NCBI GenBank assembly: GCA_030649135.1
Contig: JAUSGI010000003.1
Location: 1 to 10,953 of the forward strand
From: a bacterium
GTDB taxonomy: Bacteria; Patescibacteriota; Minisyncoccia; Phycocordibacterales; Zambryskibacteraceae
DNA: 10,953 nt
Direction of reading: 5' to 3'
Below, in pieces: positions 1 to 10,953 of the stretch (the first letter of the stretch is position 1; every line of letters starts with the position of its first letter). Below the pieces are notes generated by a model that ran no database searches, had not been told where the DNA came from, and saw only the letters and a list, made by a program, of their open reading frames with translations. Both the position numbers and the translations under genes were made by a program.

Positions 1-418
1 AGGGACTTCATCCATCACGCGGCGTCGCTCGATCAGGCTTTCGCCCATTGTCGAATATTCTCGGCTACTGCCACCCGTAGGTGTATGGACCGTGTCTCAG
101 TTCCATCGGTGGGGGTCACCCTCTCAGGTCCCCTAAGCGTCGTTGCCTTGGTAGGCCGTTACCCTACCAACTAGCTGATACTCCGCAGGCCACTCCGGAA
201 GCGAATTGCTCCTTTGGTATTGCTACCACATCTGGGATTACCCCCGCTTTCGCGAAGCTATACCAGACTTCCGGGTATGTACCTACGTATTACTACCTCG
301 TCTGCCACTAATTCAGATCGAGTCTTGCGACTTGATTTGAATCCGTTTGACTTATATGCCTCATCCACGCTGCCAGCGTTCATCCTGAGCTAGGATCAAA
401 CTCTAAATTTTAACGGAA
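1..418 (-). rRNA. rrs: 16S rRNA, 5' portion (about 415 nt). The gene continues beyond the left edge of the window.
   Basis: The reverse complement of 395-415 reads AGAGTTTGATCCTAGCTCAGG, the universal 16S 5' end. Collinear matches to 16S follow, including GAACGCTGGC, GGTAACGGCCTACCAAGGC, ACTGAGACACGGTCCA, and the 338 region as ACACCTACGGGTGGCAGTAG instead of ACTCCTACGGGAGGCAGCAG. Lengths match E. coli 16S with no insertion in the visible part. Confidence 0.93.
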
Positions 419-574
419 CAAAACAGAAAACAATATTTGGTTTCCATTTCCCCCATCGAGTCTGTCCTCGCTCACTTGGTTTCATTTTTTAGAATAGAAC
501 AGTTATTGTACTGCTCTTATCTTGTAATTCATTCAATTTTCAAAGTACACTGCCGTCCCAACTGGACGGTTTTA

Positions 575-585
575 AAGCGTAGTTA
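575..585 (-). promoter_or_regulatory. boxA-like antitermination motif in the 16S leader (minus strand CGCTTTAAAAC). A hairpin ccgtcc-N5-ggacgg lies adjacent at 554-572.
   Basis: It resembles the rrn boxA consensus (T)GCTCTTTAACAA. Position and orientation are appropriate, between the promoter and mature 16S. Confidence 0.3.
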
Positions 586-598
586 GGACGTGGGCATA

Positions 599-626
599 AG
601 TATACGGATATCATTCTTGGAGTCAA
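599..626 (-). promoter_or_regulatory. Sigma70-like promoter for the 16S rRNA: -35 TTGACT (revcomp of 621-626), 16-nt spacer, -10 TATACT (revcomp of 599-604).
   Basis: The minus strand reads gggggtcTTGACTccaagaatgatatccgTATACTtatg, 7 nt downstream of the secF stop codon and about 175 nt upstream of the 16S 5' end. Confidence 0.45.
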
Positions 627-632
627 GACCCC

Positions 633-1517
633 CTATTTCCTCCGAAATTTATAGAAAGTGACAAGCAAAGGCGAGGCCACAAAGATGGAGGAGTAGGTAC
701 CGGCAATCACTCCGATGATTAAGAGGAGGGCAAAATCTTTGGTAGCCGGAGAACCGATGAGAAAAAGGGCAAGTAGAGTTATAAAGATAGTCAGAGAAGT
801 ATTGATGGAACGACCAAATGTTTGGGTAACAGATTTCCCGACTATAACCTCGAAATCTTCGTGCGTATTCGTCTCTTTGCTGATACGTAAGTTCTCTCTA
901 ACACGGTCAAACACCACAATCGTGTCATGCACCGAGTAACCAAGAATTGCTAAGAGCCCCGTGACAAAAAGCAGGTCAATTTCTGCTCCCATGTAGTGCC
1001 CGAGCAAGACGAACGCCCCGGTCGGAATGATAATGTCGTGTGCGAGCGCCACGATAGTGGCAAGACCATATTTCCAAGACGAAACAGGTTGGGAAACCTT
1101 TCTGAAAGCAAAGGTGATAAAAAGCACAATCATCAGTATCACCACGAGAATAGCCTTGACTGCCTTGTCCTTAAGCTCTCGACCGGCTACAGGACCGATA
1201 GTGTTTTGTCTTTCCACGACGGCACTACCTAGAACCTCGATAAGCGCCTGTCTTTCCTCGGTAGTTAATTCTCTGGTACGGATGGCGTAATTAGCATCTC
1301 CGGAGGGACGAATTGAAATACCGCCCAGATTAAGCGCACCGATTTTTGATTCCACTTCATTCTGTGCCGGCCTTTCCGAAAATTTTACTTCTGTCAGGGT
1401 ACCACCCTTGAAGTCGATGGAGGTGTTAAACCCGAACACATACATTGCCCATAGAGAAACCGCGAGCAATAGACCGGAGATGGCGAAGAATATTTTCCTG
1501 TGTCGGACGATAAACAT
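633..1517 (-). CDS. secF: Protein-export membrane protein SecF
   Basis: 294 aa. N-terminal TM, the DFKGGT motif typical of SecF, and multiple C-terminal TM helices. ATG start 1 nt after the secD stop. Confidence 0.9.
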   Translation of the reverse strand: MFIVRHRKIFFAISGLLLAVSLWAMYVFGFNTSIDFKGGTLTEVKFSERPAQNEVESKIGALNLGGISIRPSGDANYAIRTRELTTEERQALIEVLGSAVVERQNTIGPVAGRELKDKAVKAILVVILMIVLFITFAFRKVSQPVSSWKYGLATIVALAHDIIIPTGAFVLLGHYMGAEIDLLFVTGLLAILGYSVHDTIVVFDRVRENLRISKETNTHEDFEVIVGKSVTQTFGRSINTSLTIFITLLALFLIGSPATKDFALLLIIGVIAGTYSSIFVASPLLVTFYKFRRK

Positions 1518-1518
1518 A

Positions 1519-2844
1519 TTATTTGTGGAAACCGTTACTGAAGAAGAATCTTTTGGTTTGGGTATCTGTGCGGGGCGCTATGGCAAAGAGGAAAGTGCGG
1601 CTGACGGTGATGGCGGTGAACATACTGATAAGCACTCCAATGCCCAAAGTCAGAGCAAAACCTTTGACTGCGGAAGTGCCGAGCCAAAAGAGTACCACCG
1701 CGGTAATGATTGAGGAGATATTTGAATCACGTATCGAGAGCCATGCTCTTTTGAATCCTTCATGCAGGGAGTCATGGATATTCTTATTTTTTTTAAGCTC
1801 CTCTTTCGTACGCTCAAAGATAAGCACATTGGCATCTACCGCCATGCCAATGGAAAGAATAAACCCAGCGATACCTGCGGCGGTGAGAGTAATGGGAATG
1901 AGTTTGAAAATGACAAGCGAGAGAATAATGTAGGAGACCAAGGCCACTACCGAGACCAGTCCCGGCAAGCGATACCAGAGAATCAAGAATAGCGAAAGCG
2001 CGATAAATCCAATTATGCCGGCTCGTACTCCAGAATTAAGAGCGGCTTCCCCGAGAGTGGCTCCCACGGTCTCGCTGGTAGAGAGAGTGATAGGCACCGG
2101 CAGGGCTCCGTAATTCAAATTACGTACCAAATCTTTCGCCTCCACGGGGGTGAAGGAACCAGTAATCTGCGCCTTACCATCATTAATCTCATCCACAATG
2201 ACAGGGGCCGAGAGCACCGCGCCGTCAAGCACGATACCCAAGACCTCTCCTTTATGCTCGCGAGTAATCTTGGCAAAGAGCTCACCTCCCTCCTTATTAA
2301 ACTCGAGCCCGACCAACGCAGCACCCGTACTCGGATTAAACTCTACTCGCGCTCGCGACAAATATCGACCGGACAGACCGGTAGGAACGAACAACTTATC
2401 GAGAGGCGCCTCTGGGTTAGCTTTCAATATTTCCTCTGTGTTGGGACTTGCCAAACGGAACTCAAGCAAGGGTGTCTGGCCTATGAGTGCGACGGCTTGA
2501 TCGATATCAGTTATGCCGGGCAGACCCACTATCAAGCGCTCGTCCTTGTTGCCCGATACTAATCCGGCACTTTCGGTCTGTACTAAAGGTTCGGAGACGC
2601 CGAAAATATTGACTCTGCGTTCGATGACCTCCTTCAAACTTTCCATAGCGCCGCGGGTATCATCCACTTTGGAAGTGTCGGCTTTGTATACCAGTTCCGT
2701 ACCCCCCACCAAGTCAAGCCCGAAACTGAAGGGGAATTTCGCCCCGGGTCTTTGTTCGACTACCAAAAAATAGCCCAGAAATATGAAAACAGCGAGGAGA
2801 ACGGCCGAAAGATAGATGTGCTTTCCTAATCCCATAGTGCGCAA
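1519..2844 (-). CDS. secD: Protein-export membrane protein SecD. The ORF-track start is TTG at 2844, and an in-frame ATG at 2835 (Met4) is the more likely start.
   Basis: 441 aa. GLDLVGGT motif, periplasmic domain followed by 6 TM helices. Tightly linked to secF, with TAA-n-ATG spacing. Confidence 0.9.
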   Translation of the reverse strand: MRTMGLGKHIYLSAVLLAVFIFLGYFLVVEQRPGAKFPFSFGLDLVGGTELVYKADTSKVDDTRGAMESLKEVIERRVNIFGVSEPLVQTESAGLVSGNKDERLIVGLPGITDIDQAVALIGQTPLLEFRLASPNTEEILKANPEAPLDKLFVPTGLSGRYLSRARVEFNPSTGAALVGLEFNKEGGELFAKITREHKGEVLGIVLDGAVLSAPVIVDEINDGKAQITGSFTPVEAKDLVRNLNYGALPVPITLSTSETVGATLGEAALNSGVRAGIIGFIALSLFLILWYRLPGLVSVVALVSYIILSLVIFKLIPITLTAAGIAGFILSIGMAVDANVLIFERTKEELKKNKNIHDSLHEGFKRAWLSIRDSNISSIITAVVLFWLGTSAVKGFALTLGIGVLISMFTAITVSRTFLFAIAPRTDTQTKRFFFSNGFHK

Positions 2845-2857
2845 TTATACGGCAAAT

Positions 2858-4207
2858 CTAGCGCCCGGCAATAGAAGCAAAAGTCTTAAGCGTCTGAAGA
2901 GCTATCTTTAGATCCAATAGGAAAGAACGGTTTTTGATGTAGTAGAGGTCGTAGGAAAGCTTGTTTTTAGTTTTATCCACATCAGTGCCATGGTGCGGGT
3001 GCTCGCCATATATCTGCGCCCAACCGGAGAGACCGGGTTTAATCAGGTGACGAACATTGTAGTAGGAAATCTCGTCAGTATAGCGCTTGACTGCTTCCGG
3101 GAATTCCGGCCGTGGCCCGATGAGCGAAATGTCGCCCCGAAGCACATTCCACAATTGTGGGAATTCATCTAGCCGAGTTTTCCTAAGAAAGTTGCCCACT
3201 CGAGTTACTTTATTCACCACATCTGTAGTCTGCCAATCACCGTTGTCGTTGAAAAGCATGGTCCGAAATTTCAAGATACGGATAATGTGGTTATTTCGCC
3301 CAACACGGTCCTGGACGGTAAAAATGGGCCCACTGCCTTCAAGTTTCATAGCCACAAAAATAAAAGGGCATGCGAGTATAGGAACCACAAGCAGAGGGAT
3401 GGACAGCAAGATATCCATTAAACGCTTCAGAATATCGTACCCACCGCGGGACGCAGTGGAAATATTCTCCAGAAACCAATCGTACCGAAGGAGTGAGAGC
3501 GGTACTCTGTCAAAAATATCCTCGTAAATCTTGTGCATATCGATAAAACTGATTTTGGAGAAAATCAGATTATAGAGATGGGGTAAGACGGGCTCGACAT
3601 TTTTATTGGCGAGGTCAATGGCTATAACGGAGACATCCTCGGCATAAACATGTGAGATAATCTCGTCCCAGAAACCCTTCTCATCGGCGCGATTCAGATC
3701 GACTGAAGAGACAAATTTGATATTGTAAATTGAATTGTTGTTGACTTCTTCATAGAGCTCTTTCATCTCATCTCCGGAGCCAATCAGGATGGCATTGTTC
3801 GGATGACCGTGGCCAATGATGAAGTAGCCATACATTCTCCAAGAAAGAATGAGCGCGAAAGATACTACCAGATATATGAATAGGATAGTCTTAGGCGTAA
3901 TACCGAAGAATGGTATGAAGTAAAAAAACATCACCGCCAAAGCTGAACTAGCCAGTTGAGTATTGGTGATAATAGTCGGCAGTTTCGACTTTAGAATAAC
4001 CGTGTGTTTCTCATATAAGCCGGCAATGTAGAAAACGAGAATCCATAGCACAAAAAGTATGCTAAAAGGCAGAAAGTGCGTTAGGAATAAGTCATTAGAT
4101 GGCACTTCCAAGCCCCGTATTAAAAGAGACAGCCAAAGCGCTACCACAAAAGAGCAAATGTCTCCCAAAAGCAGAATAAGGGCCTCTTTCCTATTGAGCA
4201 AACTCAT
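2858..4207 (-). CDS. Polyprenyl-phosphate hexose-1-phosphate transferase (bacterial sugar transferase, WbaP/CpsE-like initiating phosphoglycosyltransferase)
   Basis: 449 aa. N-terminal TM helices, then a C-terminal domain with DEFPQLWNVLRGDISLIGPRPE, the hallmark of the bacterial sugar transferase family. A TATAAT hexamer lies 8 nt upstream of the ATG on the minus strand, so a leaderless or short-leader transcript is possible. Confidence 0.85.
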   Translation of the reverse strand: MSLLNRKEALILLLGDICSFVVALWLSLLIRGLEVPSNDLFLTHFLPFSILFVLWILVFYIAGLYEKHTVILKSKLPTIITNTQLASSALAVMFFYFIPFFGITPKTILFIYLVVSFALILSWRMYGYFIIGHGHPNNAILIGSGDEMKELYEEVNNNSIYNIKFVSSVDLNRADEKGFWDEIISHVYAEDVSVIAIDLANKNVEPVLPHLYNLIFSKISFIDMHKIYEDIFDRVPLSLLRYDWFLENISTASRGGYDILKRLMDILLSIPLLVVPILACPFIFVAMKLEGSGPIFTVQDRVGRNNHIIRILKFRTMLFNDNGDWQTTDVVNKVTRVGNFLRKTRLDEFPQLWNVLRGDISLIGPRPEFPEAVKRYTDEISYYNVRHLIKPGLSGWAQIYGEHPHHGTDVDKTKNKLSYDLYYIKNRSFLLDLKIALQTLKTFASIAGR

Positions 4208-4275
4208 AGACGTGCATTATACAACAATAAACCTAAAATAGGAAGTGCACCCACACCCCCTAATATACCCTCAAC

Positions 4276-4311
4276 TACGCTACAATATGCCTATAGGTAG
4301 TGAATAACGTA
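4276..4311 (+). repeat. 36-bp direct repeat, left copy. It contains the -10-like TACAAT (4281-4286) and the palindromic core CCTATAGG, and ends on the A of the ATG at 4311.
   Basis: TACGCTACAATATGCCTATAGGTAGTGAATAACGTA aligned against 4881-4916 gives 30/36 identities, with a perfect 16-nt core TATGCCTATAGGTAGT. Confidence 0.8.
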
Positions 4312-4880
4312 TGGGTAAGTTAGAGAAAAAAGACAGAAAAAGAGGCGGGAAAGAGAATTTGCAGAGAATCATTTTGAGTTCAGTAGCCGCCGTCGGTGCT
4401 TTAAGTATTGGTCTTATTGCGCCAAATGTTATCAATGCCCTGAACAAACTTGGTATTTTGCCCAAACTTCGCCAGCAAGAGTACACCTCTTCTTCCGCTT
4501 CAAAACTTGTTAGACGAGGACTATTAAAGTTTAAGGATGGTTATTATCGACTAACAATAGATGGAGAAAAGGTACTGAGAAGATGGGAGTTATCAGATTA
4601 TAAATTAAAAAAACCAAAAAAGTGGGACAGAAAATGGAGAATGATCATTTTTGACATTCCGGAAAAGAAAAAGGGAATACGGAAACAAGTAACGGCCCTT
4701 TCCAACCAAGCGGGGTTCTATCGATTACAAGATAGTGTTTGGGTGTATCCATATGATTGTGAAGATATTATTGGACTTCTGAAAACAGATTTTGGTATTG
4801 GAAAAGATTTACTTTATGTCATCGCTAGTGAAATAGAAAACGATCGCCATCTTCGTTATAAATTTGGCCTCAACTCTTGA
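4311..4880 (+). CDS. PaaX-family-like transcriptional regulator: N-terminal winged-helix plus a C-terminal PaaX-C/Cas2-like domain
   Basis: 189 aa. The C-terminal segment KKWDRKWRMIIFDIPEKKKGIRKQVTALSNQAGFYRLQDSVWVYP matches the PaaX pattern as I recall it (WDGKWLLLL...GFG.L..S.W..P). The N-terminal part resembles a wHTH (..LVRRGLLKFKDGYYRLTIDGEKVL). This rests on recalled motifs, not a database search. Confidence 0.55.
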   Translation: MGKLEKKDRKRGGKENLQRIILSSVAAVGALSIGLIAPNVINALNKLGILPKLRQQEYTSSSASKLVRRGLLKFKDGYYRLTIDGEKVLRRWELSDYKLKKPKKWDRKWRMIIFDIPEKKKGIRKQVTALSNQAGFYRLQDSVWVYPYDCEDIIGLLKTDFGIGKDLLYVIASEIENDRHLRYKFGLNS

Positions 4881-4916
4881 TACGTCATATTATGCCTATA
4901 GGTAGTAGATAACGTA
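4881..4916 (+). repeat. 36-bp direct repeat, right copy. It contains the -10-like TATTAT (4888-4893) and starts immediately after the TGA stop of the preceding gene.
   Basis: TACGTCATATTATGCCTATAGGTAGTAGATAACGTA. See the left copy. No gene follows on the plus strand. Confidence 0.8.
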
Positions 4917-4970
4917 GTTTGTAAATATACGTCCAAGGAGACGGGATATTTGAAATAAAATGAAGATCGC

Positions 4971-4996
4971 CCAGCGCGCATGCGCGCTGGGCGGAG
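4971..4996 (-). terminator. Rho-independent terminator (26-nt perfect palindrome CGCCCAGCGCGCATGCGCGCTGGGCG) for the minus-strand receiver gene. It may be bidirectional.
   Basis: Perfect GC-rich inverted repeat. On the minus strand it is followed by ATCTTCATTTTATTTCAAAT (T-rich), 38 nt downstream of the receiver stop codon. Confidence 0.6.
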
Positions 4997-5034
4997 AAAA
5001 CAAACTTCATCACTCGAGTGGGACGAGAACGGCA

Positions 5035-5400
5035 CTACAACTCCTTGAGGATCTTGGAAACGAGCATCGAGATCATGTGTTTCTCTGCCTCGTGGCTACA
5101 ACCGATCTTCATCATTTGCTTCCGGAAGATGGAGCTTCCGGAAGCAGCCACGATGGGGCCCGGGAAAGTCTGGCGCATCTTCTGAATGAGCGATGCAGAA
5201 TTCAGCTTCTCACCGCCCACGCTACCATCTATGATCACGAGGGTGAGGTCGGCATTGGCTTCGAAAAGCCGTTCACCATCTTCTACAGAAGAGGCCACAA
5301 TGACTTCGGCACCTTCCCTCTTGAGATGGCGAGTCCATATGCGCTGCCATTCTTCCTCGTCCTCGACGATCAGAACTTTCGGTGAACTCGCTGTTGTCAT
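5035..5400 (-). CDS. Stand-alone response-regulator receiver domain protein (CheY-like)
   Basis: 121 aa. KVLIVEDEEE acidic pocket, the phospho-acceptor Asp context LTLVIIDG, and a conserved Lys region. GGAG Shine-Dalgarno 9 nt upstream of the ATG. No output domain and no histidine kinase in the window. Confidence 0.8.
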   Translation of the reverse strand: MTTASSPKVLIVEDEEEWQRIWTRHLKREGAEVIVASSVEDGERLFEANADLTLVIIDGSVGGEKLNSASLIQKMRQTFPGPIVAASGSSIFRKQMMKIGCSHEAEKHMISMLVSKILKEL

Positions 5401-5468
5401 GATAAGGTTCTCCTAAGTTAGTGATGTACTGCGGGCTCGAGAAGTTGGCTGTTCTTTGATAACTATAT

Positions 5469-6566
5469 ATGATAAAATGGCTATTGTCAATGAAAATTCT
5501 CTACGGTATAACCAAATCAAATTTTGGAGGCGCCCAGCGCTATGTATATGAATTGGCAGTAGAAGCTAAGAAGCTCGACCACAACGTGGCAGTACTCTGC
5601 GGTGGAAATGGCCCTCTTGCCCAAAAATTGAAAGCGGAAAATATCAGGGTTATTACCATACCCGGCTTCGGTAGAGATATGGCTTTATTAGCCGATGTCT
5701 CCCATCTGTTGTTTATCATTAAAACTGTTTGGCGTGAGAAGCCAGATGTCTTTCATATTAGTAGTGCCAAAATGGGAGGCGCGGGAATTTTTTCTGGTCG
5801 TCTGTTGGGTATCAGGAAAATAATCTTCACGGCCCACGGCTGGGCATTCAATGAACCGCGTCCGGCATGGCAGAAAGTTCTTATAAAATTTTTTACTTGG
5901 GTAACTATACTCTCGGCGCACAAAACTATTTTCGTGTCGGAAAAAACTAAAAAAGACGCCGAGAGGTGGCCCTTCATAAAAAATAAATTGACCGTGATTC
6001 ACAACGGGATATCAAGGTTTAACCTTGCTCAACGTGAAGATGTGTCGTTCACAGTCGGGACAATCGCAGAACTGCATAGAATCAAGGGCTTGGATATCTT
6101 GCTCAAAGCTTGGAATAAATTTCACAAAAAGCACCCAGAAGCGAAGCTCGTCATCATGGGTACTGGAGAGGAGAAAGAGAATTTAGAAACCCAAGCTCAA
6201 GAACTGGGCATTACTGATTCAGTAAACTTCAAAGGCTATGTGGAAAATGCCAAACAATATTTATCAAGCTTCGACATCTTCGTCCTACCCTCCCGTTCAG
6301 AAGCTATGCCTTACACTCTGTTAGAAGCAGGCTTGGCTGAACTACCGGTCATCGCGACTTCTGTGGGAGGTATTCCGGAGGTTATTGAAAGCGGCATAAA
6401 CGGTGTCCTCGTGCCAGCAGAGGAAGAGGAGGCCCTCTTCTCCACTCTCGTACTTTTGGCCGAAGATGAAGAGTTAAGAAAACGCCTTGGCACTAATTTG
6501 AAATCATCAGTCCAAGAAGATTTTTCATTCGAAAAAATGGTGAAAAATACTTTTGCTTTGTATTAA
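5469..6566 (+). CDS. Glycosyltransferase family 4 (GT-B fold, group 1 glycosyltransferase). An alternative start is Met8 at 5490.
   Basis: 365 aa. N-terminal MKILYGITKSNFGGAQRY, typical of GT4 N-domains. C-terminal EAMPYTLLEAGLAELPVIATSVGGIPEVI is the E-X7-E motif region. Confidence 0.85.
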   Translation: MIKWLLSMKILYGITKSNFGGAQRYVYELAVEAKKLDHNVAVLCGGNGPLAQKLKAENIRVITIPGFGRDMALLADVSHLLFIIKTVWREKPDVFHISSAKMGGAGIFSGRLLGIRKIIFTAHGWAFNEPRPAWQKVLIKFFTWVTILSAHKTIFVSEKTKKDAERWPFIKNKLTVIHNGISRFNLAQREDVSFTVGTIAELHRIKGLDILLKAWNKFHKKHPEAKLVIMGTGEEKENLETQAQELGITDSVNFKGYVENAKQYLSSFDIFVLPSRSEAMPYTLLEAGLAELPVIATSVGGIPEVIESGINGVLVPAEEEEALFSTLVLLAEDEELRKRLGTNLKSSVQEDFSFEKMVKNTFALY

Positions 6567-7672
6567 ATTACCCTCGGTCCTTGGGAATAGCGCTTCATGC
6601 TCGAGAGCATGCCGAGGGCAAACCACTCGGTCACTAAATGCGACCCACCGTAACTCATAAATGGAAAAGTGATACCCGTCACTGGTAAGACACCCATATT
6701 CATACCGGCATTGATGGCAATTTGGACAGAGAGCCAGATGACCACGCCTAGACCGAAAAAAGTTTCGAAATTAGTGGCAGCTAATTGAGCACTACTTGTG
6801 ATGCCCGCCAGTAAGACAAAACAGGAGAGCAAGAGAATAACTGCGCCGACAAAACCCCACTCTTCGGTGAAAGCGGCGAAAATAAAATCAGTCTCGTATT
6901 CCGGCAGAAAGCGTAGTTTCGACTGGCTACCTTGGCCAATTCCCTTACCAAGTACCCCGCCGGAACCAACAGCGACAGTTGATTGATAAGCGTTGTAGCC
7001 GGCACCTCGAACATCTGCGAGCGGATGAATAAAAGAGATAATACGAGCTTTCTGATAAGGGGCAAAAACCGACGTCCAAAGAATAGCCGAGGCCACTATC
7101 CCCAAAATTACTACGAAGGCAAAGTGTTTCTTGGAAATACCGGAGACTAGTACCATGCCTAACCAAATTCCGAAGATGACAATAGCCCCGCCAAAATCCG
7201 GCTGTAAAAAGACAAGCAAGAAAATCAGGAGGGCATAGACACCCGAGACCAGGATGTGCCGCAGATTTTTTATCTCAACGTGCCGGCGGGAAAAATATTT
7301 CGAGAGCATTAAGACTATTACCAGCTTGGCCGGATCAGAAGGTTGAAATGCGAAAGCTCCAAATTGAAACCAACTCTGCGCACCTCTGGTCGCTTGGCCC
7401 ACGACCAAAAGAAAAGCCAGCACTATTAGAGTAGCGACAAAAATTGGCACGAGCACTCTGGTCCGGCGCAGAAACCGCCAGTCAACCGTAGTGGCGACAA
7501 AGAAAATAATGAGTGATACGAGGAGCCAGATACTCTGACGGAAGAAAAAATAATTCTCACCGGAGAACGAGTCCATAGTGACCAGTCCGGCCAGAGACAA
7601 TAGGGCCGCTGGCACAAACATATACCAGTCAACATGGAGCCTCTCTCTAAACTTGAGTCCAAGCCCGATCAT
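6563..7672 (-). CDS. SEDS-family peptidoglycan glycosyltransferase (FtsW/RodA/SpoVE)
   Basis: 369 aa and about 10 TM helices. Conserved SEDS blocks FLPEYETDFIFAAFTEEWGFVGA and GVLPVTGITFPFMSYGGSHL. Convergent 4-bp overlap (TTAA) with the GT4 stop, and 4-bp ATGA overlap with the upstream VWA gene. Confidence 0.85.
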   Translation of the reverse strand: MIGLGLKFRERLHVDWYMFVPAALLSLAGLVTMDSFSGENYFFFRQSIWLLVSLIIFFVATTVDWRFLRRTRVLVPIFVATLIVLAFLLVVGQATRGAQSWFQFGAFAFQPSDPAKLVIVLMLSKYFSRRHVEIKNLRHILVSGVYALLIFLLVFLQPDFGGAIVIFGIWLGMVLVSGISKKHFAFVVILGIVASAILWTSVFAPYQKARIISFIHPLADVRGAGYNAYQSTVAVGSGGVLGKGIGQGSQSKLRFLPEYETDFIFAAFTEEWGFVGAVILLLSCFVLLAGITSSAQLAATNFETFFGLGVVIWLSVQIAINAGMNMGVLPVTGITFPFMSYGGSHLVTEWFALGMLSSMKRYSQGPRVI

Positions 7673-9066
7673 CGGAGAAAACTTTTGTTCGGAAGAACTC
7701 TTATGTAGATATCTATGACAGCCGGACTTTTCCTACAGATTTTAGTGGCGATTTGGTTATAAATACCGTTGAGTTCGTTCGTTGAGGGAGCGAAGTAAGC
7801 CTCGGCCGTGGTGGTTGCCAGCGTTTGCAAAAGATTCTTGTTCACATTCTTGCCGAGTCCAATGGTGTAGATACTGATGCCATCCTGCCGAGCCAACCTC
7901 GCGGATTCTACGGCATAAGTTTCAGGATAATTGCCCACCCCCGCTTTTATCGGCAAAGTTGGTATCCCGTCTGTTAAAAGTACCAAGGCCTTACCGGCCT
8001 TCTCGCGGTGACGAGTGGAATTTAATTCTTCCCTGGCAGCCAGGATGCCCGCACCGATGTTTGTATTCTGAATGGTGGTGGTGGCAATCGAAATATTAGT
8101 AATGGCCTGTCGAATAGTGTCGATATTTACACTAAACGCCGCATCAACCGGTGTACTTGCTTCGTTGGCAAAAGATATCAGGGAATGGCGGTCATTCTTA
8201 CCAAGATGGTTGATAAAGTAGAGCGCGGTATTCTTTACATCAGTTAGTGGTTGGGGCGGATTGGCTCCCAAATCATCCATACTGCCGGAGCGGTCGATAA
8301 CCAAAGCCACATCTACGGGAAAGCCACAGATATCTTCCTTAATCTTAAAGGGTTCTGACCAGTTAAAGACGACGGGTGTTAGACCCCCCCCGAGAAGATT
8401 CTCCACAAAAGTTTTGGCAGCCGCTATGAGGTTGCCGTCCTCCCCCGACACCAATGCCGTAAGTTCAATGTTGGCAGCCGAGCCCAGGGAATTGTTTACC
8501 AAGACGGCATCAATTCTCGGGTTGCTATCTCTACTGGTAAGAGCGGCATTTTTTACCGACAAGTCTATTGCCGTCTGGGTATTCTTCTGCCAGACAAACG
8601 CGTCTGTCTGCCACTCGAGTGTGGCCCGGACAGGCCGCCACTCTCCCATGTCCAGAGGACCTTCAAAGATAATAAAAGTATCACTCTTGGGTACAAAGGC
8701 CTCCGACTCTATGACACGAACGGGGGCCAAGGATGATTCTTCAAACAGTTTGAGAATATAGCGAGCATGATAAATCTCGGCAGTGACATTAGGGTTCTCT
8801 ACTACGGCCACTACCGCGTAGAGACTCGGCCCTAGCTCTAGCACTCGCGGGTCACCCTTGAGAATAAGCGGCAGAGACTGGGCAGTACAGAGAAGCTGGC
8901 ATGACCCGCCGCAGTCAATACCGGTTTCATCGCCATTTTGTTTTAGGTCACTGCAAGTTGGTGCTCTATAGAATAAGTAAAAAACGGGTACGCCAACAAA
9001 TATGATAAGGGTGAGAACCACAATAGAAAAAATAATTCTCTTACGCCCTACAGACCATTGATTCAT
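7669..9066 (-). CDS. Membrane-anchored von Willebrand factor type A (VWA) domain protein
   Basis: 465 aa. N-terminal TM helix, a Cys-rich segment (CSDLKQNGDETGIDCGGSCQLLC), a central domain I could not assign, and a C-terminal VWA domain with the MIDAS motif DRSGSMDD and LVLLTDGIPT. Translationally coupled to the SEDS gene. Confidence 0.75.
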   Translation of the reverse strand: MNQWSVGRKRIIFSIVVLTLIIFVGVPVFYLFYRAPTCSDLKQNGDETGIDCGGSCQLLCTAQSLPLILKGDPRVLELGPSLYAVVAVVENPNVTAEIYHARYILKLFEESSLAPVRVIESEAFVPKSDTFIIFEGPLDMGEWRPVRATLEWQTDAFVWQKNTQTAIDLSVKNAALTSRDSNPRIDAVLVNNSLGSAANIELTALVSGEDGNLIAAAKTFVENLLGGGLTPVVFNWSEPFKIKEDICGFPVDVALVIDRSGSMDDLGANPPQPLTDVKNTALYFINHLGKNDRHSLISFANEASTPVDAAFSVNIDTIRQAITNISIATTTIQNTNIGAGILAAREELNSTRHREKAGKALVLLTDGIPTLPIKAGVGNYPETYAVESARLARQDGISIYTIGLGKNVNKNLLQTLATTTAEAYFAPSTNELNGIYNQIATKICRKSPAVIDIYIRVLPNKSFLR

Positions 9067-9223
9067 AAGTTAATTTTAGCAGAGTTGGGGCAAACAAAAA
9101 GCCCCATGTATAAGCGGACTTTTTGTCTGCCGTCACAGGGCCTTAACCTCTAGAAACCCCTAGAACTCCGGATCGTGCTTCGCCCGCCACTCGATCTCGG
9201 CTAGGAGAAATTAAAATCAAGTA

Positions 9224-9334
9224 CTCTGTGCTAGCGCCTAGCTACTTTTGCCTTGCGACTATCATCGCCTCAACTGGGCTTAACTTCCGTGTTCGGAATG
9301 AGAACGGGTGGGACCCCGGCGACGAAGCACCAGA
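9224..9334 (-). rRNA. rrf: 5S rRNA (boundaries approximate, ±5 nt)
   Basis: The minus strand reads GGTCCCACCCGTTCTCATTCCGAACACGGAAGTTAAGCCCAGTTGAGGCGATGATAGT, matching the 5S loop B/helix III and loop C consensus (CCGAACACGGAAGTTAAGC, GATGGTAGT). The terminal helix pairs GUGCU with AGCAC. Confidence 0.8.
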
Positions 9335-9381
9335 ACATAAGGTTCGAATTTGTTTAAGTTGATTTCATTTAGCAGGACAGA

Positions 9382-9447
9382 GATACGAATTGTTACGAAT
9401 ATGATCGAATAGATTCGTATCATTCGATTGGATTCGCGTAAATTCGT
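9382..9447. repeat. 23S-5S spacer array. Three CGAAT motifs at about 10-nt spacing are followed by four ATTCG motifs at about 10-nt spacing, including a 9-bp inverted repeat GATACGAAT/ATTCGTATC (9382-9390 and 9413-9421).
   Basis: Read directly from the sequence tacgaattgttacgaatatgatcgaatagattcgtatcattcgattggattcgcgtaaattcgtgta. Confidence 0.5.
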
Positions 9448-9454
9448 GTAGTGA

Positions 9455-9695
9455 TTTCGAAGTTTCCTAATAGAATTCGGGCAATTAGTACGCCTCGGCT
9501 CAACACCTTGCGGTGCTTACACCTAGCGCCTATCAACCTGGTCATCTCCCAGGGCCCTAATAACGATTCCTAATCTTGGGGTTGGCTTCATTCTTAGATG
9601 CTTTCAGAATTTATCCGTGCCCGACTTAGCTACCCTGCGGTGCCCTTGGCAGGACAGCAGGTACACCAGAGGTCGGTTCAACTCGGTCCTCTCGT
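9455..9695 (-). rRNA. rrl: 23S rRNA, 3' exon (E. coli ~2657 to the 3' end). The 3' terminus is approximate.
   Basis: The minus strand starts ACGAGAGGACCGAGTTGAACCGACCTCTGGTG (the sarcin-ricin loop onward), continues through CTGAAAGCATCTAAG, and ends near GTACTAAT. Confidence 0.85.
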
Positions 9696-10491
9696 CGCGT
9701 CATTCCCCTATCACTAGGAGCGCAGACTATATCTTCACCCAAACATTTTAAAATGTTTTAGGGTGTTGGCGTATTACTTGCATATGCTGTCGTTTTCAAT
9801 GAAACGATTCCTCATTATGCAAGTCTGCCGGCTTTCACCGACAAGTCGTTACGGGGTCAAACCCAACATCTCTAACAATTCGTTTTTAGACCGCTTTTTC
9901 TTAGTAACATAATTTTCTTCTTGAATTACTAAGATAAGATCAGCTAAAACGAGTAGTTGCTTATTTATGAGTCGTCTCCGTTTGGCTAGAGAAAGAATTT
10001 CACAGGCTTTACGTAAAGCAATAGCCTGAAGTTTCTTGAAACGAATGTATGGCATAAGTGCTTTGAGTATATCTCGCACTTGTACGAATCCATTTATTCT
10101 TAATTCGGTCATTCCATCATTTCTTTTGGAAAGGTACCCGATACCAAGAATTTCTCTAACCCACATTAACGGCTTTTCATGTCGAGTGTCTTGATAGAAG
10201 CAAATGGTCGGCATAAAACGCCTTTTAAGCGCGCCGTCCTTACGCTTCTTGATTTGAAGCATTAAGCTTCCGTCTCCATCAAGAAACCCAGCAATATAAG
10301 CAAGATGATTGGATCGACTTCCCACGGTATTGTCTTGTGTTTTTCTGGTCCTCAAGTAAGTTTATACTTACCATTGTACCACTGCCTACGGACTAGGCCG
10401 GCAATAGTTATCAACAGACCAAACGTCCACAAGATTTCACCGTTATTAGCCACTTTGTCATCACAAATTACTTCGTGAAGTAGCAAAATTT
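9696..10491 (-). mobile_element. Group I self-splicing intron (about 796 nt) in the 23S rRNA, carrying a LAGLIDADG homing endonuclease ORF
   Basis: Exon continuity: ...GAGGGGATTTGACTCTAGU | intron | ACGAGAGGACC... restores the universal SRL sequence. The 5' exon ends in U and the intron ends in G (GACGCG). The P7 3' strand/S element AAGAUAUAGUCUGC (revcomp of 9722-9736) pairs with GCAGACU about 60 nt upstream. There is a P8-like hairpin CGUUU..AAACG, and a P9 hairpin UCCUA-GUGA-UAGGG with a GNRA tetraloop just before the 3' splice site. Confidence 0.75.
9849..10355 (-). CDS. LAGLIDADG homing endonuclease, single-motif and I-CreI-like, encoded in the intron. TTG start with an in-frame TAA 3 codons upstream.
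   Basis: 168 aa. LAYIAGFLDGDGSL motif at residues 18-31. Basic C-terminal region. Located in a peripheral loop upstream of P7. Confidence 0.8.
   Translation of the reverse strand: MRTRKTQDNTVGSRSNHLAYIAGFLDGDGSLMLQIKKRKDGALKRRFMPTICFYQDTRHEKPLMWVREILGIGYLSKRNDGMTELRINGFVQVRDILKALMPYIRFKKLQAIALRKACEILSLAKRRRLINKQLLVLADLILVIQEENYVTKKKRSKNELLEMLGLTP

Positions 10492-10953
<462 letters not shown>

Follow-up and report, generated by a model that had tools for sequence, protein, structure and literature searches.

The DNA analysed here is a stretch of 10,953 nucleotides from a bacterium of the family Zambryskibacteraceae (Patescibacteriota; contig JAUSGI010000003.1 of assembly GCA_030649135.1, positions 1 to 10,953), hereafter called the window. 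Its rRNA genes are all encoded by the minus strand, and the 3' part of the 23S rRNA gene is divided by an insert of 796 nt, read 10491→9696. The 5' exon occupies positions 10492-10953 (model positions 2223 onward in the alignment to the Rfam model LSU_rRNA_bacteria of the large-subunit (LSU) rRNA) and ends at the equivalent of Escherichia coli U2656, while the 3' exon starts with A2657 (ACGAGAGGACC...) at position 9695 and extends to 9470, a coordinate that is approximate for the 3' end of the 23S rRNA. Both exons are well conserved, scoring 393-470 bits against the LSU model. When positions 10953→9400 are aligned to this model, the sole large insert splits CUAGUA from GAG in helix 95, and alignment of the joined flanks to E. 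coli rrlB by MAFFT likewise puts the junction between U2656 (window 10492) and A2657 (window 9695), inside helix 95. The joined flanks read CTCTAGTACGAGAGGACC, the universal sequence of the sarcin-ricin loop (SRL), with GACUCUAGU-ACGAGAGGACC across the predicted spliced junction and CUAGU-ACGAGAGG as the expected ligated form around the site. The same coordinates, length and position, and the same restoration of the SRL upon joining the flanks, had been proposed in an earlier examination of this DNA made without database searches (the sequence-only reading), and both alignments reproduce them exactly, on the minus strand. Since A is the first base of the intron as well as of the 3' exon, the placement is ambiguous by one base; it is settled as U2656|A2657 because two homologous introns (L028 and L079) begin with G (UAGU|GA...).

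Homologues were collected by scanning one genome per GTDB species for the pattern AAGAYATAGTC N{12,42} ACGAGAGGACC, which represents the consensus of the joining region J8/7 and the 3' strand of helix P7 (P7'), followed by the 3' exon. The 5' splice site was assigned by requiring that the 6 nt preceding UAGU pair with the 6 nt following GGACC, which together form the stem of helix 95. The intron was found at the SRL site in at least 119 species-representative genomes (contigs), nearly all of them metagenome-assembled genomes (MAGs) of Patescibacteria, also known as the candidate phyla radiation (CPR). The 5' splice site falls at the identical position in 106 loci, all with 6/6 complementarity in helix 95, and the homologous introns range in length from 279 to 889 nt. 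For structural analysis, 102 introns with 10-nt exon flanks were aligned (alignment A1), a structure was derived by eye from the window and from members lacking an open reading frame (ORF), and the modelled pairs were then counted.

Uninterrupted genes also exist in abundance. An exact-match scan recovered the uninterrupted junction, in the window's own helix 95 context, from at least 120 metagenome contigs, and two intron-less sequences (L165 and L176) are 96% identical to the spliced 3' part of the window's 23S rRNA over 688 nt. Because these two run without interruption across the junction, excision of 10491→9696 regenerates the sequence of close relatives. The intron is an optional element, present in some close relatives and absent from others.

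As judged from its nucleotide sequence and modelled fold, the insert belongs to the group I introns, as the sequence-only reading had held, and its architecture is of the IA type. Over the 100 modelled pairs and the 102 introns, 86.6% of cells are paired, compared with 37-45% when the pairing partners are slid by 1-3 columns; compensatory changes occur in 79 of the 100 pairs, and none of 500 shuffles reaches any of the observed measures. Compensatory changes are seen in P2, P3, P5, P6, P7.2, P8, P9.0 and P9. Pairing is 90-97% in P2, P3, P6, P9.0 and P9, where double changes are numerous, and covariation is also seen in the outer stems of P7.2 and P8.

Read in the direction of transcription, the predicted fold begins with P1 (10481-10495), in which UAGU of the 5' exon and AA of the intron pair with the internal guide UUGCUA (99.5% of cells paired). 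U2656 (10492) forms a wobble pair with G (10484) in this helix, and all 102 homologues have this U•G at the 5' splice site. P2 is a hairpin (10461-10478; UCACGA/UUGUGA, loop AGUAAU) with compensatory changes in all six pairs and 96.6% pairing, and P3 joins a 5' strand at 10449-10453 to the 3' strand GCCAA at 9766-9770, with compensatory changes in four of five pairs and 95.7% pairing. The P4-P5 domain (10324-10443) contains P4 (10443-10438 with 10329-10324), which is 99.8% paired and nearly invariant, P5 (10434-10428 with 10339-10333; 78% paired), and a P5 extension (10427-10340) bearing a hairpin loop AGUCC (10394-10390) and the motif CUUGAGGACC (10356-10347); P5a and P5b are 72-82% paired. 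The strands of P6, GGGAAGUCGA (10314-10323) and UUGACCCC (9853-9860), are 95.8% paired and include three compensatory pairs (GUC/GAC changing to GAC/GUC or GCC/GGC). They are followed by GUAACGACU (9852-9844), which comprises J6/7 (GUAA), C9848 and the 5' strand of P7 (GACU, 9847-9844, pairing with 9728-9725), and in which every position is invariant or at least 90% conserved among the 102 sequences.

Two further hairpins, P7.1 (9843-9826, GAAA loop) and P7.2 (9823-9777), fill positions 9777-9843, and all eight pairs of the outer part of P7.2 show compensatory changes. In the P8 hairpin (9736-9765) the outer stem is 85-97% paired, again with compensatory changes. J8/7 and the 3' strand of P7 are formed by AAGAUAUAGUCU (9735-9724, with P7' AGUC at 9728-9725), which is invariant among the homologues, but it should be noted that the scan pattern had demanded that sequence. 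The 3' end of the intron (9696-9723) consists of P9.0 (9723-9721 with 9699-9697), the P9 hairpin (9720-9705), which is capped by GUGA, and the terminal G (9696); all nine pairs of P9.0 and P9 show compensatory changes. The terminal G is found in all 108 homologous introns examined, with the three covarying pairs of P9.0 just upstream. The individual hallmarks named in the sequence-only reading, namely a U at the 5' splice site, a terminal G, an S element (AAGAUAUAGUCU at 9735→9724), P8 and a P9 capped by a GNRA loop (GUGA at 9714→9711), are thus all borne out.

Comparison with the Rfam group I intron model RF00028 points the same way for the core. In group I introns the J8/7-P7' segment, with the consensus AAGAUAUAGUC, and the J6/7-P7 strand make up the site that binds guanosine, and here both AAGAUAUAGUCU and the J6/7-P7 segment GUAACGACU align to the model consensus. 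In the ORF-less homologue L106 the RF00028 alignment reproduces P1-P9, places CGACU on the P7 strand of the model, and shows the two extra hairpins as an insertion between the 5' strand of P7 and the 3' strand of P3. Hairpins P7.1 and P7.2 at this location were reportedly taken by Michel and Westhof in 1990 as the mark of subgroup IA, and the intron is called IA-type on this definition.

One structural proposal of the sequence-only reading did not stand, namely a P7 of 7 bp between GCAGACU (9828→9822) and AGUCUGC. Its 5' strand falls at the junction of P7.1 and P7.2 and shows no covariation: 81% of cells are paired in this arrangement, but 201-489 of 500 shuffles match the observed measures. 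The invariant CGACU directly after J6/7 is preferred and is probably the true 5' strand of P7, the 7-bp helix having been mis-assigned. A fifth P7 pair across the bulge, between C9848 and G9723, was considered as well and is ruled out by the covariation of G9723 with C9697, the third-last base of the intron, in P9.0.

The loop L6 of the intron contains an ORF for a LAGLIDADG protein (9849-10355, minus strand). Called mechanically from a UUG at 10355, it encodes 168 aa and ends at a UAA (9851-9849) within J6/7, whereas the likely start codon is the GUG at 10325-10323, which would give 158 aa. This GUG lies within the invariant ACCGUGGGAAG of P4'/P6 and the UAA within the invariant CCCCGUAACGACU of P6'/J6/7, and introns that lack an ORF still keep both codons. 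Because the start and stop codons sit inside the conserved ribozyme core, nucleotides needed for translation are also needed for the ribozyme fold, and the two must be in competition. In most full-length copies the length of L6 is 2 mod 3, so that the frame is kept.

The sequence-only reading had described the product as a one-motif LAGLIDADG protein, and the domain searches concur. There is one copy of the Pfam domain LAGLIDADG_1 (residues 21-103; E 8.3e-9, 36.7 bits against a curated cut-off of 23.1), and the matches in the PDB are derivatives of I-CreI, I-MsoI and I-CvuI (E 4.6e-24 to 1.8e-16). The single LAGLIDADG motif is LAYIAGFLDGDGS, in which the catalytic Asp is kept, and all 60 intact homologues retain GF.DGDG. 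Residues aligned to D20, Q47 and K98 of I-CreI are conserved. In the protein database, 2,976 homologues were found at E <= 0.001, the nearest being 84-94% identical, with the named ones among them (84-89% identity) labelled Zambryskibacteria. The similarity of the exons and that of the endonuclease both indicate a Zambryskibacteria-like member of the Patescibacteria. The ratio of nonsynonymous to synonymous substitution rates (dN/dS) is 0.14 in comparison with L025, the closest of the genomic homologues (amino-acid identity 87%), and the endonuclease gene of the window is intact and under purifying selection. Among 105 homologous introns, 60 carry an intact frame from GUG to UAA (59 of them encoding 155-164 aa and one 62 aa), 28 carry a disrupted frame, and the remaining 17 have only a short L6 hairpin. 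This distribution of ORF states is the picture expected of a homing cycle of invasion, decay and loss.

The site itself would be well suited to such an enzyme. The intron-less DNA CTCTAGT|ACGAGAG, which in longer context reads CTCTAGTACGAGAG and GGGGATTTGACTCTAGTACGAGAGGACCGAGTTGAA, is symmetric at six of seven positions per half-site, and none of the other positions among the 674 in the 688-nt spliced region equals the symmetry of its centre, at the insertion point. This near-palindrome fits a homodimeric LAGLIDADG enzyme, although recognition of it by the encoded protein is predicted from sequence symmetry. Under the proposed mechanism, the intron RNA would fold into its P1-P9 core after transcription, with P1 presenting U2656 as a U•G pair. 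A guanosine cofactor would attack at U2656, the freed 3'-OH of U2656 would then attack after the terminal G (9696), and ligation of the exons would restore an intact SRL. The L6-encoded, 158-aa single-motif protein would cut intron-less CTCTAGT|ACGAGAG as a homodimer, possibly around the central GTAC, and repair templated by an intron-bearing copy would copy the intron into the cleaved gene, i.e., homing.

Taken together, we consider it very probable that the window carries a mobile IA-type group I intron at U2656/A2657 in the SRL that encodes an endonuclease of the I-CreI family, with splicing, dimerisation, cleavage and the cut positions all being predicted properties. Several points weigh against this interpretation and should be set beside it. 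P4 and P7 are uninformative with respect to covariation because they are invariant, as P1 essentially is too. The P7 helix as modelled has only 4 bp (GACU/AGUC, 9847-9844 with 9728-9725), P10 has at most 1 bp, and a second segment complementary to P7', AGACU (9826-9822, minus strand), lies where P7.1 meets P7.2, its complementarity extending to about 81% of cells over the 102 introns; this segment may take part in an alternative pairing or a tertiary contact. The RF00028 search of the window returned a significant match (E 2.2e-5), but its 30.1 bits do not reach the gathering score of 50, and a large part of the alignment runs wrongly through the ORF; the ORF-less L106 also stays below this score (41.2 bits, E 4.2e-9). 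The 461-nt insert in L6 and the P7.1/P7.2 hairpins are penalised as insertions in this scoring. On the protein side, the translation start is uncertain (the GUG in P4'/P6 or the upstream UUG), with no Shine-Dalgarno sequence nearby, and the residue aligned to I-CreI R51 is a His. Finally, the literature that we searched yielded neither biochemical nor RNA evidence for an intron at the SRL site.

Among the alternatives, the one that survives best accepts a spliced intron and holds that the ORF product is mainly a maturase, or that the endonuclease is inactive and decaying. Some LAGLIDADG proteins are indeed maturases (I-AniI and the bI3 maturase), and both the disrupted frames in 28 of the 88 ORF-bearing homologues and the His at the R51 position could be taken in its favour. 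However, the ribozyme core is kept in 17 homologues without an ORF, and because of these the intron's own protein does not appear to be needed for splicing. The frame in the window is intact, with its catalytic Asp retained and a dN/dS indicative of constraint, a near-palindrome of the kind that suits a homodimeric nuclease is centred on the insertion site, and the patchy distribution of the intron among relatives is what homing would give. We regard a maturase or a decaying endonuclease as unlikely.

Much less likely still is that the insert is an intervening sequence (IVS) of the type cut out by RNase III with no ligation, and this would leave a fragmented 23S rRNA. Alpha-sarcin inactivates ribosomes by breaking the SRL between G2661 and A2662, which speaks against a reading in which this loop is left unligated. 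At 796 nt, the insert has every part of a group I core, supported by covariation, together with a U•G at the 5' site, a terminal G and a homing endonuclease gene; it lies in the loop of helix 95, whereas an IVS would be recognised as a short extended hairpin that replaces the tip of helix 25 or helix 45 and has no ribozyme core. On the other side, ligation is a prediction in the present case, and IVSs are frequent in bacterial 23S rRNA genes and have been suspected at the CPR sites 23IS2 and 23IS4 (Tsurumaki, Sato, Saito and Kanai 2024, J Bacteriol; PMC11270868). That the insert is chimeric or an artefact of assembly, or that the gene is a dead rRNA copy, is barely credible: the assembly is probably metagenomic and only one 23S copy is visible, but more than 100 genomes, assembled independently, have this intron at this very nucleotide, the exons are conserved at the LSU-model scores given above and at 96% identity to intron-less relatives, and a single set of rRNA genes is usual in CPR genomes (PMC11270868).

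The preferred reading, a mobile group I intron in the SRL, places the element in a family that is already on record. The 2024 survey (PMC11270868) covered 348 CPR 23S rRNA genes, of which 82% carry insertions, and numbered 14 recurrent sites. LAGLIDADG_1 proteins are mostly encoded at positions 1917, 1931, 1952, 2593, 2604 and 2657 (23IS6-8 and 23IS12-14), and for group I introns at 23IS14 there was no earlier report from other bacteria (PMC11270868). The site of the window's intron, L2656 in our numbering, is the '2657' or 23IS14 of that survey, with which it shares the gene, the nucleotide, the intron class, the Pfam endonuclease family and the clade, and nothing essential is different. The suggestion of the sequence-only reading that this may be a new homing site is thus not sustained, since position 2657 has been catalogued across the CPR (PMC11270868) and the intron is present in at least 119 species genomes. 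Its further suggestion of a new endonuclease specificity holds in a weak sense only, in that no enzyme for this site had been biochemically tested in the literature searched, while the site itself is known. Within this catalogued family of CPR introns the present one is unexceptional, at a site that is already known and very common. The main text of the 2024 paper treats 23IS14 as a catalogue entry (Rfam hit, Pfam domain and position), and secondary structure, subgroup, ORF placement, target symmetry and biochemistry of the site do not figure in it.

Comparison with better-known systems is instructive in both directions. The Chlamydomonas chloroplast 23S intron Cr.LSU with I-CreI, together with I-MsoI and I-CvuI (L2593), is likewise of group I, lies in the 3' part of the LSU gene and encodes a single-motif LAGLIDADG enzyme of about 160 aa. 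Enzymes of the I-CreI type act as homodimers on pseudo-palindromic rDNA and are the best PDB matches to the window protein, but they differ in site (2593 versus 2656), in having an unrelated target and in their organellar hosts, and are distant homologues (E 4.6e-24 to about 1e-10). The CPR enzyme I-ShaI of site 23IS7 cleaves its own insertion site and dimerises (PMC11270868). The 23S introns of Thermotoga, Coxiella and Simkania (L1917, L1931 and L1951; Nesbø & Doolittle 2003, cited in PMC11809585) also encode LAGLIDADG proteins and occupy critical conserved sites, yet these are in domain IV, in contrast to the SRL of domain VI, and self-splicing is reported to have been shown by experiment for Thermotoga, whereas it is predicted here. 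Within the same phylum, the tRNA introns of Patescibacteria are almost all of subgroup IA, and in vitro self-splicing has been shown for these introns; they differ in their position (35/36 of the tRNA) and in that most have no endonuclease gene, while the remainder encode HNH and not LAGLIDADG proteins (PMC13011429).

A feature of the P5 extension deserves separate consideration. A GGUCC-like pentamer occupies the hairpin loop of this extension in 94 of 104 introns (AGUCC in the window, 10394-10390, minus strand), and it is complementary to a GGACC that occurs twice: within the internal motif UUGAGGACC (CUUGAGGACC in the window) and within the 3' exon, as SRL residues G2663-C2667 (window 9689-9685). 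The internal UUGAGGACC resembles the exon GAGAGGACC, and 17 of the 21 introns that have no internal copy of GGACC keep the loop motif. Because P10 amounts to at most 1 bp, the P5-extension loop may be a contact for the 3' exon. We give only a slender chance to two bolder readings, one being that the locus encodes an active homodimeric meganuclease with an uncharacterised specificity for the universally conserved, near-palindromic SRL DNA, probably cutting around GTAC, and the other that this intron family, with P10 all but missing, aligns the 3' exon in an unusual manner through the P5-extension loop. If the second were true, group I introns would have a type of exon-binding contact that is new for them.

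Some observations concern the taxonomic labels of the intron-bearing genomes. The same intron occurs at the same site in contigs labelled Elusimicrobiota (L018, JAYEJT010000171.1), Gammaproteobacteria (L059, CAZFGO010000001.1) and WS2 (L080, MWBO01000044.1); this could be due to mis-binning or mislabelling, or could be real spread beyond Patescibacteria. Many of the intron-bearing MAGs are labelled 'Saccharibacteria', a label that may be generic. Saccharibacteria were reported to be without such introns in the 2024 survey (PMC11270868).

A different interruption is seen in many relatives (L131, L155, L158, L195 and others from metagenomes; L025, L074 and L092 from genomes), in which the BLAST match to the spliced 23S rRNA of the window breaks at query position ~398/399, corresponding to E. 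coli ~2593. These relatives therefore appear to have another insertion, at the classical L2593 site, and the window is without an intron at 2593.

As for the surroundings of the intron, Rfam searches identify on the minus strand the 3' third of the 23S rRNA gene (from 10953 downward, 9470-10953), a 5S rRNA gene (9334→9229) and the first 411 nt of a 16S rRNA gene (411→1), and no tRNA genes were found in the window. Linkage of the rRNA genes is lost and their order is unusual, with the start of the 16S gene lying about 8.8 kb downstream of 23S-5S on the same strand. Between 5S and 16S are bacterial genes for a VWA protein, FtsW/RodA, a GT4 glycosyltransferase, a PaaX-like protein, a sugar transferase, SecD and SecF. 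The spacer between 23S and 5S (9345-9479) holds nine of the 20 ATTCG pentamers of the window, the first four in minus-strand and the next five in plus-strand orientation, spaced about 10 nt apart, and these inverted CGAAU/AUUCG repeats may form a processing stem. No enrichment is seen for the pattern GAATWCG of the spacer repeats, nor for ATTCG over the window as a whole.

A practical consequence of such introns is that they split rRNA gene calls, as illustrated by our first Rfam pass, which ended the 23S match at the intron. To the known catalogue, the present analysis adds a covariation-supported IA-type structure and the placement of the ORF in L6, where it begins and ends with codons belonging to the ribozyme core, along with a near-palindromic predicted target, which would make the enzyme a candidate for a new meganuclease scaffold. 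In the wider biology of the CPR/Patescibacteria, mobile introns reach the most conserved and functionally critical sites of rRNA, a point that had been made at the catalogue level in 2024. The SRL binds factors, and every functional ribosome of this organism would therefore depend on accurate splicing.

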